Below the pieces are notes generated by a model. The model searched no databases and was not told the DNA's origin. It saw only the letters and a list, made by a program, of their open reading frames with translations. A DNA stretch of 62,251 nt, counting the filler, from Basidiobolus ranarum (taxonomy: Eukaryota): assembly GCA_040143965.1 (NCBI GenBank). It is 2 parts of 2 records of this genome, joined end to end, with 100 filler letters (N's around TTAATTAATTAA, not from the genome) between each part and the next. Parts side by side here need not be neighbours in the genome. Positions count along the whole stretch, not along the records: positions 1 to 31,109 come from JASJQH010006967.1; 1 more part is not named here. One strand, written 5' to 3'. This document shows positions 17,142 to 18,179 of this stretch, in pieces. A program made the position numbers and the translations under genes. Each line of letters begins with the position of its first letter. Position 1 is the first letter of the stretch.

Positions 17142-18179
17142 ATGTCTTCCTCGCATTACTTGATTCAAATATTACCAGGATTGGAGGACATGGTGGCATT
17201 CGACAGTAGCCTTTTCTTCAAAGCCTCTACCACCGATTCTCATACCTACAATAGCGTTAAATCCAACTCCGATTCCAATTCTTTACCTTCCACACCCCCT
17301 TCCTACCCGCATTTAGAATCTTACTTCCCTGGTCACTCACCCTGCATTGAGGATGCTTCTTCAAATACTCTCACAGTTCAATCGAAATCCAATCCTACGG
17401 ATAGTCTGAGTGCAGTCACTACAAATCAAGTGAAGCTTGATATCAATTCAAATTCTCCCACTTTCTCCATTTTCGATCCAAAGCCCAAAAGTAAAGCTGG
17501 ACGTAAACGGAAAAGTGAAGTAGTTGATCAAGATGTTAGAGCCAAAGAAAGGTGATTTCTGAAGTATCTAGTCCACGAATATCTACTAACTGTTTCAAAA
17601 TCTATTAGAGTTATTCGTAATAGAGTGGCTGCTCAAGAGTCTAGAAATCGTCAAAGACTCTACGTAACCGAGTTGGAGCAGAAAAATCAATTACTAGGTG
17701 CGGAGAATAAGATATTGGAAAGTAGGCTGAGTACAGTGGAACAAGAAAAGTTATACCTGTCGAAGGCATTGGAGGCAATGACAGTCCAGCTTGTTATGTC
17801 CCAAACCCAAGCACAAATACAAATGGCTGAGATGACAAACTTCCTTTTTGACGGCTTTGGCGAGTCAGCAGTACTCACCAAGTTAGAATACGATAAAGGT
17901 ATTCATAATTCTCTGCAGCGGAAGCCGTCAACATATCTAAGGAACCTTCACGAGATGACTTCAACGAACTTCAATCATCCCAATATTGGGATACTTTGGT
18001 GGATCCTAATTTGGATTTTCTGCTATGGCCTCCAAGTCAATCCCAAACTTAATGAAGTCATCGATATCTCACCCTTAATGGAGATTTCTCGCAAAATACT
18101 TCAAGAACCTGTGAAGGAACTACATGAAGATCAGAGCTCCTCTCTATCTTTACCTAATCTATCTCTATGGCCAACTTGA
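17142..18179 (+). CDS. HAC1: Hac1/XBP1-type bZIP UPR transcription factor (unspliced form ends 18179; Ire1-spliced form ends 18052)
   Basis: A spliceosomal intron at 17552-17608 (GTGATT...TACTAAC...TAG) joins GRKRK...AKER to VIRNRVAAQESRNRQRLYVTELE and a leucine zipper, matching the Hac1/XBP1 basic region. An Ire1 splice structure follows. Confidence 0.9.
17848..17931 (+). other. Ire1-cleaved non-canonical intron structure (intron 17869-17915, 47 nt)
   Basis: Hairpin 1 is TTGGCGAGT-[CAG/CAGT]-ACTCACCAA. Hairpin 2 is TTCT-[CTG/CAGC]-GGAA. The closing stem is TTGACGGC/GCCGTCAA. 47 mod 3 = 2. Confidence 0.88.

Follow-up and report, generated by a model that had tools for sequence, protein, structure and literature searches.

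Does the fungus Basidiobolus ranarum carry a bZIP gene whose transcript is spliced by Ire1 rather than by the spliceosome? This question is raised by a 47-nt segment, nucleotides 17869 through 17915, within the 62,251-nucleotide stretch of DNA analyzed here (hereafter the window). The splicing of HAC1, XBP1 and bZIP60 by Ire1 is a textbook mechanism, and the introns removed measure 23-26 nt in metazoan XBP1, 252 nt in S. cerevisiae HAC1 and 23 nt in plant bZIP60. From the data presented below, the 47-nt segment is very probably an Ire1-type intron of a B. ranarum gene of the HAC1/XBP1 type.

The host gene resides on the plus strand, and its parts are readily delineated. Coding exon 1, taken from the ORF listing, spans nucleotides 17142 through 17551 with its start codon at 17142. 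It is followed by a 57-nt GT-AG spliceosomal intron (17552-17608) that falls within the basic region, and by exon 2 (17609-18179 with the stop codon, coding part 17609-18176). Exon 1 must be included and the 57-nt intron removed to yield the known protein P0001: nucleotides 17142-17551 joined to 17609-18176 translate to this protein with identity across all 326 amino acids. P0001 is recorded by NCBI and UniRef as ‘hypothetical protein K7432_003127 [Basidiobolus ranarum]’ and is annotated in its unspliced form. The assignment of this DNA to an early-diverging fungus in the original prediction therefore holds, because the unspliced product is the NCBI protein of B. ranarum. That prediction had also asserted that GT-AG gene predictors are unable to model the intron, and the public gene model indeed presents the unspliced form, although such an annotation is to be expected whether or not splicing occurs.

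On the product of exon 2 (17610-18176), the Pfam models bZIP_1 (1.4e-8, 35.1 bits, cut-off 27.6) and bZIP_2 (6.6e-8, 33 bits) place a bZIP domain at residues 2-50, and the bZIP_1 match agrees with the earlier proposal of a HAC1/XBP1-type bZIP gene. By this Pfam assignment, the portion of exon 2 that precedes the predicted 5′ Ire1 cut (17609-17868, plus strand) encodes the basic region, the leucine zipper and a linker, such that the splice site starts approximately 35 codons past the zipper, or 3′ of the bZIP. No Pfam family was matched by the N-terminal 136 residues or by the alternative-frame tail that splicing would create. The gene is best explained as the HAC1/XBP1 orthologue of B. ranarum.

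The site itself, all on the plus strand, comprises two 7-nt loops brought together by an exon-exon helix. This closing helix consists of eight perfect pairs (17848-17855 with 17924-17931), as supported by a script check, by covariation and by pair probabilities of 0.7-1.0. The 5′ splice-site hairpin (17857-17881) is read from the sequence as a stem of 17857-17865 with 17873-17881 and a loop at 17866-17872, and the predicted 5′ cut follows the third base of this loop, between 17868 and 17869. The 3′ splice-site hairpin (17909-17923) has a 4-bp stem of 17909-17912 with 17920-17923 and a loop at 17913-17919, and the predicted 3′ cut again follows the third base, between 17915 and 17916. Between the two sites, a central hairpin is contained within the intron (17881-17910, core 17886-17891 with 17899-17904; pair probability of at least 0.99). 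The boundaries of the predicted intron (17869-17915) rest on this anatomy, on a motif scan and on the homologous segment that is missing from a relative described below. Its borders are non-spliceosomal, with CA at the start and TG at the end, and its length is 2 mod 3.

The loops, the closing stem and the 47-nt segment had all been given coordinates in the original prediction, and both the sequence and the script check reproduce them. Likewise the stems are located as described, but two imperfections had gone unstated: the nine nucleotides of the 5′ stem form 4 + 4 pairs around a C/A mismatch at 17861 with 17877, and the 3′ stem includes a G-U pair at 17912 with 17920. In addition, the 3′ strand of the 3′ stem is able to lengthen the closing helix instead. 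Both loops match the pattern CNGCNGN, in which the cut is preceded by C at -3 and G at -1 and followed by G at +3; this is the Ire1 loop consensus given in excerpts from PMC4438243 and seen also in the alignment of Rfam family RF04247. The consensus in those same excerpts includes a hairpin stem of at least five bases, a length that the B. ranarum stems, with 4 + 4 pairs at the 5′ loop and four at the 3′ loop, do not reach in an unbroken run.

Relatives of the gene were sought by scanning metagenome contigs with an alignment of eight proteins, an approach that uses a single pattern and is unable to find spliced or divergent forms. Nine loci of 1.1-1.6 kb were recovered, with 43-48% protein identity in the best segment, and no Basidiobolus-like contig is among them. 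These nine environmental contigs look like transcripts, because four of the nine carry AATAAA within about 20 nt of the end, none has an intron at the position of the 57-nt Basidiobolus intron, and one (L007) opens with a fragment of SSU rRNA. We also observed that three environmental contigs start with a fragment terminating precisely at the 3′ cut and fused to the 5′ UTR. Such fragments may represent abundant half-cleaved intermediates or circular ligation products.

In each of the eight loci with an unspliced copy, 4-5 pairs close the 5′ loop, 4 pairs close the 3′ loop, and the distance between the two is exactly 44 nt. Around both cuts, the flanks match the window almost base for base despite strong differences in G+C content, whereas the center of the intron is occupied by a hairpin of different sequence at the same place. 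This conservation extends to codon choice. When the Basidiobolus sequence is compared with the loci, codons for the same residue are also identical at 52 of 76 positions around the sites versus 47 of 168 in the bZIP, a difference whose significance is overstated by a pooled Fisher test because the loci are closely related and not independent; for L002 alone, the corresponding values are 12 of 17 and 10 of 31. The 5′ hairpin sequence is invariant, synonymous positions included, in all nine aligned sequences. Since it never varies, it has no say on structure either way.

Covariation was scored for the structure as originally proposed. Of the 189 cells of the alignment that this structure covers, 94.2% are paired, a share that falls to 28.6-46.6% if the 3′ side is offset by 1-3 columns, and none of 500 shuffles reaches the observed covariation score. 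Changes on both sides of a pair occur in five pairs, all of them in the closing helix (five of its eight pairs), where 97.2% of the cells are paired. The 3′ hairpin is paired in every cell of the nine sequences, and its changes are one-sided only. The central hairpin was left out of the scoring, as MAFFT splits its pairs across columns due to a 3-nt difference in length. Because the sampled diversity amounts to about three independent lineages (Basidiobolus, L001 and the remaining loci), the covariation is supportive rather than conclusive. An alignment of this kind had been suggested as a check, and it came out in favor of the intron: loops, stems and flanks are kept in the eight unspliced contigs, and the closing helix covaries.

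One locus, L005, is a precisely spliced transcript of a relative, joined at bases homologous to the predicted Basidiobolus junction. Although it comes from a relative, it is the evidence here that comes closest to being direct. At about nucleotides 573-600, the exon sequences are as in the other relatives and a 44-nt segment is missing between the two loop positions. Four bases common to both borders allow five placements of this gap. A spliceosomal intron was considered as its source and rejected, as none of the five placements yields GT-AG or another spliceosomal pair. After the junction, the new frame remains open for approximately 150 residues and encodes an acidic tail rich in Asp, Phe and Glu. 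The contig also begins with an intron-containing fragment, and both forms were therefore present in that sample. The proposed intron boundaries are thereby upheld from two sides, by the same two loops in eight contigs and by the lack of the homologous 44 nt at the loop positions in L005.

An Rfam model for the intron gives a more qualified result. RF04247 (‘bZIP non canonical Hac1/Xbp1 intron’) aligns over its full length to exactly nucleotides 17848-17931, but with a score of 16.9 bits (E-value 8.1) that is well short of the gathering score of 41. Thus, the proposed search with Hac1/Xbp1 models finds the predicted site end to end and does not reach the threshold. RF04247 is not the best weak match in the Rfam search of the site, and no Rfam family attains its gathering score anywhere in the window. 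Among the nine contigs of relatives, five are matched by RF04247 at the same site with 21.2-25.3 bits. The deficit in score arises mainly because of a 24-26-nt insertion between the hairpins, the model treating the central part of the B. ranarum intron as a 26-nt insertion. RF04247 was presumably derived from the survey of Hooks and Griffiths-Jones (2011), and the Basidiobolus genomes are later than that survey.

Thermodynamic folding agrees with part of the proposed structure. For nucleotides 17840-17940, RNAfold yields a minimum free energy (MFE) of -30.9 kcal/mol, compared to -18.12 ± 2.76 kcal/mol for 200 shuffled sequences (z-score -4.63), none of which is as good. The canonical four-helix fold, at -25.7 kcal/mol, is 5.2 kcal/mol less stable than the MFE structure. 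Within the ensemble, the closing helix has pair probabilities of 0.7-1.0 and the central hairpin of at least 0.99, whereas the inner four pairs of the 5′ hairpin are formed at about 0.5 and the 3′ hairpin at no more than 0.01. RNAalifold lengthens the closing helix and the central hairpin and does not predict the 3′ hairpin. Therefore, the fold that had been put forward is borne out in its closing helix and in a stability far above that of the shuffled sequences, but not in its 3′ hairpin, which is disfavored. Given this disfavor, the models imply either that the 3′ hairpin would need the enzyme, or stacking on the closing helix, in order to form, or that the 3′ site would be recognized in some other context.

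The latter option leads to an alternative in which Ire1 acts at the same boundaries and not via the twin-hairpin fold, either because the 3′ site lies in an open multiloop or because the RNA refolds on binding. With an open multiloop, the 3′ site would sit beside a closing helix lengthened to 11 bp and a long central hairpin, and the structure recognized would differ from that of XBP1. The longer closing helix (17848-17858 with 17921-17931) is indeed preferred by the MFE structure, by the ensemble and by RNAalifold, as is an extended central hairpin, with pairs that do not vary among the nine sequences. However, both small hairpins can form in each of the nine aligned sequences, with the 4-bp 3′ hairpin in immediate stacking contact with the closing helix, and both are covered by the Rfam alignment. 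Moreover, nearest-neighbor energies are uncertain for 4-bp stems in junctions. We consider this alternative unlikely, and it would leave the intron and its boundaries as described.

Excision of the 47 nucleotides shifts translation into an ORF listed at 17909-18052, as confirmed by translation of the joined exons and as had been claimed from the length of 17869-17915 being 2 mod 3. The product changes in length from 326 to 268 amino acids. The 3′ exon after splicing (17916-18052, plus strand, stop codon 18050-18052) contributes 44 residues, eight of which are acidic and two basic, and ten of which are F, W, Y or L. Such a composition is usual for an acidic activation domain, and we predict this function for the tail. 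In DNA of 39% G+C, chance makes a second frame of 44 open codons no more than mildly improbable, and this frame is weak evidence when taken alone.

Additional evidence comes from proteins related to P0001. P0002, a B. ranarum paralogue with 42% identity, and P0003, a homologue from B. meristosporus, were identified by a word-indexed search. In 1.84 billion representatives, a profile search returned 908 matches with E-values of 1e-3 or better, 103 at 1e-10 and six at 1e-30. When the three Basidiobolus proteins are aligned, no invariant run is longer than residues 220-228, which are encoded by the 5′ hairpin; this run exceeds any invariant run of the basic region. An alignment of 15 proteins, with identities down to 21%, retains only five invariant residues outside the bZIP, namely E222, A224 and L226 at the 5′ site and S238 and Q240 at the 3′ site.

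We defined a 5′ signature as an acidic residue, a small residue, Ala, a small residue and Leu, and found it in 24 of the 150 best representatives; 18 of the 150 carry both the 5′ and the 3′ signatures. The spacings between the two signatures imply introns of 41, 44, 47, 50, 53, 59, 95 and 107 nt, lengths that are all 2 mod 3 by construction of the test, such that their phase is not independent evidence. For the B. ranarum paralogue (protein K7432_001058) the predicted intron measures 59 nt, and for the two B. meristosporus genes 47 nt each. Named members of this set belong to Basidiobolus and to many Kickxellales (Coemansia, Kickxella, Linderina, Martensiomyces and Dipsacomyces). A record from Coemansia is named after XBP1 function. 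Separately, in a protein atlas, one relative adjoins clusters of Zoopagomycota and a cluster named ‘Transcriptional activator hac1’, an observation that serves as a lead only.

The same DNA read without splicing (17916-18179, plus strand, stop codon 18177-18179) encodes a 102-residue tail that ends in Trp-Pro-Thr. This tail holds a hydrophobic segment of about 16-17 residues, encoded at 17985-18035, and the Kyte-Doolittle maximum of the whole protein (2.04) falls in it, at residues 263-277 of 326. The Basidiobolus homologues P0002, P0003 and P0004 have similar segments, whose counterparts in more distant homologues are weaker. A Trp column is kept near the end of the unspliced frame in the 15-protein alignment. 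Furthermore, Pro-Pro or Pro-Thr, followed by no more than one residue, forms the C-terminus of 11 of the 18 signature-bearing proteins, versus 14 of the 132 other representatives. These patterns suggest that the unspliced frame is under selection at the protein level, and the same unspliced layout is observed in Basidiobolus, in Kickxellales and in further relatives.

These features might also be expected if there were no splicing in Basidiobolus, with the stretch kept for the protein or for some other RNA role (localization, pausing or decay) and with the 326-amino-acid form as the only product. Consistent with this, the annotated protein is the unspliced form, its frame is conserved to the end, and the spliced form was not found in the protein databases searched. 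The last result is weak evidence, obtained by searching for the alternative-frame tail within longer entries among 5.8 billion proteins; a comparison of the spliced tail with 150 homologues likewise gave no significant similarity (best E-value 0.30). Annotation in unspliced form is expected either way, as predictors cannot model such introns. On the other hand, synonymous positions are preserved around the sites and not in the bZIP, compensatory changes occur in the closing helix, and the relative L005 is spliced at the homologous bases. We judge an absence of splicing in Basidiobolus to be very improbable.

To assess how often such a site would arise by chance, both strands of the window were scanned for two CNGCNGN loops, each with at least four closing pairs, located 15-700 nt apart. 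The site described here is the one occurrence of this strict twin motif, whereas 100 dinucleotide shuffles average 0.04 occurrences and four of the 100 contain one or more. Only the strict motif is informative, since a looser CNGNNGN loop gives twin sites at near the chance rate (4 in the window versus 2.08 expected). Mere coding sequence with two CNGCNGN words and some complementarity, as might be suspected from the counts for the loose motif and from the Rfam E-value, is exceedingly improbable given the uniqueness of the strict motif, the z-score of the fold, the position of the site directly after the bZIP on the coding strand, and its conservation and covariation in relatives.

An Ire1-type intron at 17869-17915 would be expected to operate as follows. 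On ER stress, Ire1 would cut after the third base (G) of each 7-nt loop, at 17868/17869 and 17915/17916, while the 8-bp helix of 17848-17855 with 17924-17931 would keep both exons together after cutting. A tRNA-type ligase would then join the exons, and the frame would move by two bases. In consequence, a 102-residue tail with a hydrophobic segment would be exchanged for the 44-residue acidic, aromatic tail, and a 326-amino-acid form that is inactive or directed to the membrane would give way to a 268-amino-acid transcription activator. For B. ranarum, we infer that Ire1 is the nuclease, that the reaction depends on stress, that such a ligase takes part and that the spliced protein is active.

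A further, tentative proposal is that the unspliced frame may itself be a working part of the switch, as in animal XBP1u. In Basidiobolus, the hydrophobic segment lies about 50 residues before the stop codon, which is more than the 40 residues asked for in XBP1u-type targeting and far enough to leave the ribosome while the last codons are being read. The nascent segment would emerge, and the conserved Trp and the terminal aromatic-Pro-Pro-stop sequence could then cause the ribosome to stall at termination. The mRNA of the stalled ribosome would thereby be tethered to the ER membrane beside Ire1.

Comparison with known systems reveals both likenesses and differences. As compared via the Rfam consensus of RF04247, the B. 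ranarum site shares with metazoan XBP1 the conserved letters of the two 7-nt loops, the exon-exon helix on the outside, a location immediately 3′ of the bZIP and a swap of the C-terminus by frame shift. Animal XBP1 apparently has the same loop letters, and the same reading frame with respect to the loops. The B. ranarum intron differs in being 47 nt long and having its own central hairpin, in a 3′ hairpin of just four pairs, and in a spliced product that is shorter than the unspliced one (268 versus 326 amino acids). According to passages in PMC4891664, the unspliced product of XBP1 (XBP1u) is translated and relies on a hydrophobic region and translational pausing; a hydrophobic segment is likewise present in the unspliced form of B. 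ranarum. Those passages also describe an unspliced plant bZIP60 with a hydrophobic, membrane-directed segment that is removed by splicing, as predicted here; however, bZIP60u is described as a true transmembrane protein, whereas the B. ranarum segment of about 16-17 residues has a putative targeting role.

With S. cerevisiae HAC1, the B. ranarum gene shares cutting by Ire1 in two 7-nt loops, the joining of exons by tRNA ligase and the swap of the C-terminus, all of which are predicted for B. ranarum. In yeast, a long intron blocks translation by pairing with the 5′ UTR, as stated in PMC3154848 and PMC4891664. Pairing of this type was sought in B. ranarum and rejected. Silencing as in yeast is unlikely because the intron has no exact complement longer than 7 nt in the 152 nt upstream of the ATG, and the unspliced frame of B. 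ranarum, unlike that of yeast, looks translated and selected.

By intron length, the closest known case is HXL1 of Cryptococcus neoformans, for which sections of PMC3154848 report a 56-nt Ire1-dependent intron demonstrated by RT-PCR and an ire1 mutant. As described there, HXL1 resembles the B. ranarum gene in its intermediate intron length, in a short conventional intron upstream, in a CAG at the intron border and in being without yeast-type pairing of intron and 5′ UTR. HXL1 differs in that it belongs to Basidiomycota, in a very divergent bZIP compared to the recognizable, Zoopagomycota-wide bZIP family of B. ranarum, and in splicing that was tested experimentally, whereas the B. ranarum intron is predicted from sequence. 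Among early-diverging fungi, the closest known case is the likely Hac1 of Rhizopus arrhizus, whose noncanonical intron was seen in RNA-seq in 2024 (excerpted text of PMC10946435). The likeness, again as described in that excerpt, is of an early-diverging fungus with an unannotated noncanonical intron found by hand in a poorly conserved Hac1 orthologue; the organism belongs to Mucorales and not to Basidiobolus, and it is likened here by description. The mechanism as a whole, for HAC1, XBP1 and bZIP60, is covered in parts of PMC4891664, PMC4438243, PMC10946435 and PMC3154848. In a literature search that did not cover the Hooks and Griffiths-Jones (2011) survey, we found no publications on Ire1-type splicing or the UPR in Basidiobolus or Zoopagomycota.

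The intron is thus an expected, so far unannotated member of a well-known mechanism, and a variant of its RNA structure with intermediate length. As the public record gives the unspliced form only, the annotation lacks the predicted active UPR regulator of Basidiobolus, and the active form is probably missing likewise for the B. ranarum paralogue and for dozens of genes in Kickxellales. With this site, Ire1-type splicing would reach into Zoopagomycota, and the site points to an intermediate class of introns, of 41-59 nt with a central hairpin, that is missed by the Rfam model at its threshold. With a covariance model that permits the insertion, annotation of these introns would become automatic.

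The hydrophobic segment and the mostly Pro-Pro ends of the unspliced frame hint, at the level of sequence patterns, at XBP1u-like membrane targeting in early fungi. Because XBP1-like loops and frame are combined here with a conserved, apparently translated unspliced frame, these fungi are useful for asking whether XBP1u-style targeting is ancestral. For Aspergillus, this question (PMC7580959) and a function of the unspliced product (PMC7580959 and PMC13703316) have been raised only as speculation. If the proposal for Basidiobolus is true, nascent-chain membrane targeting would be ancestral to fungi and animals, and the yeast block by 5′ UTR-intron pairing would be a later replacement.

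Three environmental transcript-like contigs from relatives of Basidiobolus open with a copy of the end of exon 1 together with the intron (L002:1-76, L003:1-112 and L005:1-63), and in each the copied segment terminates exactly at the predicted 3′ cut, with an ambiguity of 3 nucleotides in the placement of the L005 end. The copy is fused to 5′ UTR sequence belonging to the transcript that the contig represents. These fragments may derive from circular or ligated half-cleaved RNAs, or from template switching during which a cleaved 3′ end, being abundant, was used as the acceptor. 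Under both origins, the fragment ends point to real cleavage at the predicted base. However, contigs L004 and L007 are likewise chimeric at their 5′ ends. Chimeric starts are thus frequent among the assembled contigs, which weakens this argument. The L004 segment (L004:1-82) comes from the bZIP-coding part of this same gene and has an end that reads CNG and then NNGN, outside any hairpin, and the L007 segment (L007:1-33) is a fragment of SSU rRNA (Rfam RF01960, 23.1 bits).

The two Basidiobolus species compared each carry two HAC1-type paralogues (P0001 and P0002 in B. ranarum; P0003 and P0004 in B. meristosporus), and all four retain the signatures of both splice sites. Predicted intron lengths are 47 and 59 nucleotides for the B. 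ranarum pair, and 47 nucleotides for each B. meristosporus gene. P0003 (K493DRAFT_296960) lacks five basic-region residues that are present in all other homologues, is without a precomputed bZIP Pfam match, and its gene model probably contains a mispredicted spliceosomal intron. In the models for P0074 and P0130 (Coemansia sp. and Dipsacomyces), the unspliced frame runs into the intron, after which the model changes to an extended acidic frame. It seems that gene prediction introduced a spurious conventional intron to arrive at the reading frame expected from Ire1 splicing.

Many homologues have unspliced frames that carry a conserved Trp and later end with an aromatic residue, Pro-Pro and a stop (C-termini of P0002, P0004, P0006, P0029, P0076, P0095 and P0116); the window gene closes with Trp-Pro-Thr (18150-18179). 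Comparison of window positions 17918-18049 with 18150-18176 revealed that Leu-Trp-Pro-Pro, the last four residues of the P0002 and P0004 unspliced frames, also occurs within the spliced-frame tail (17918-18049), which may be a coincidence. Among the 150 best representatives, Pro-Pro or Pro-Thr ends, followed by at most one further residue, are found in 11 of the 18 signature-bearing homologues versus 14 of the 132 others. Judging from sequence, the aromatic-Pro-Pro-stop may serve as a termination-stalling end.
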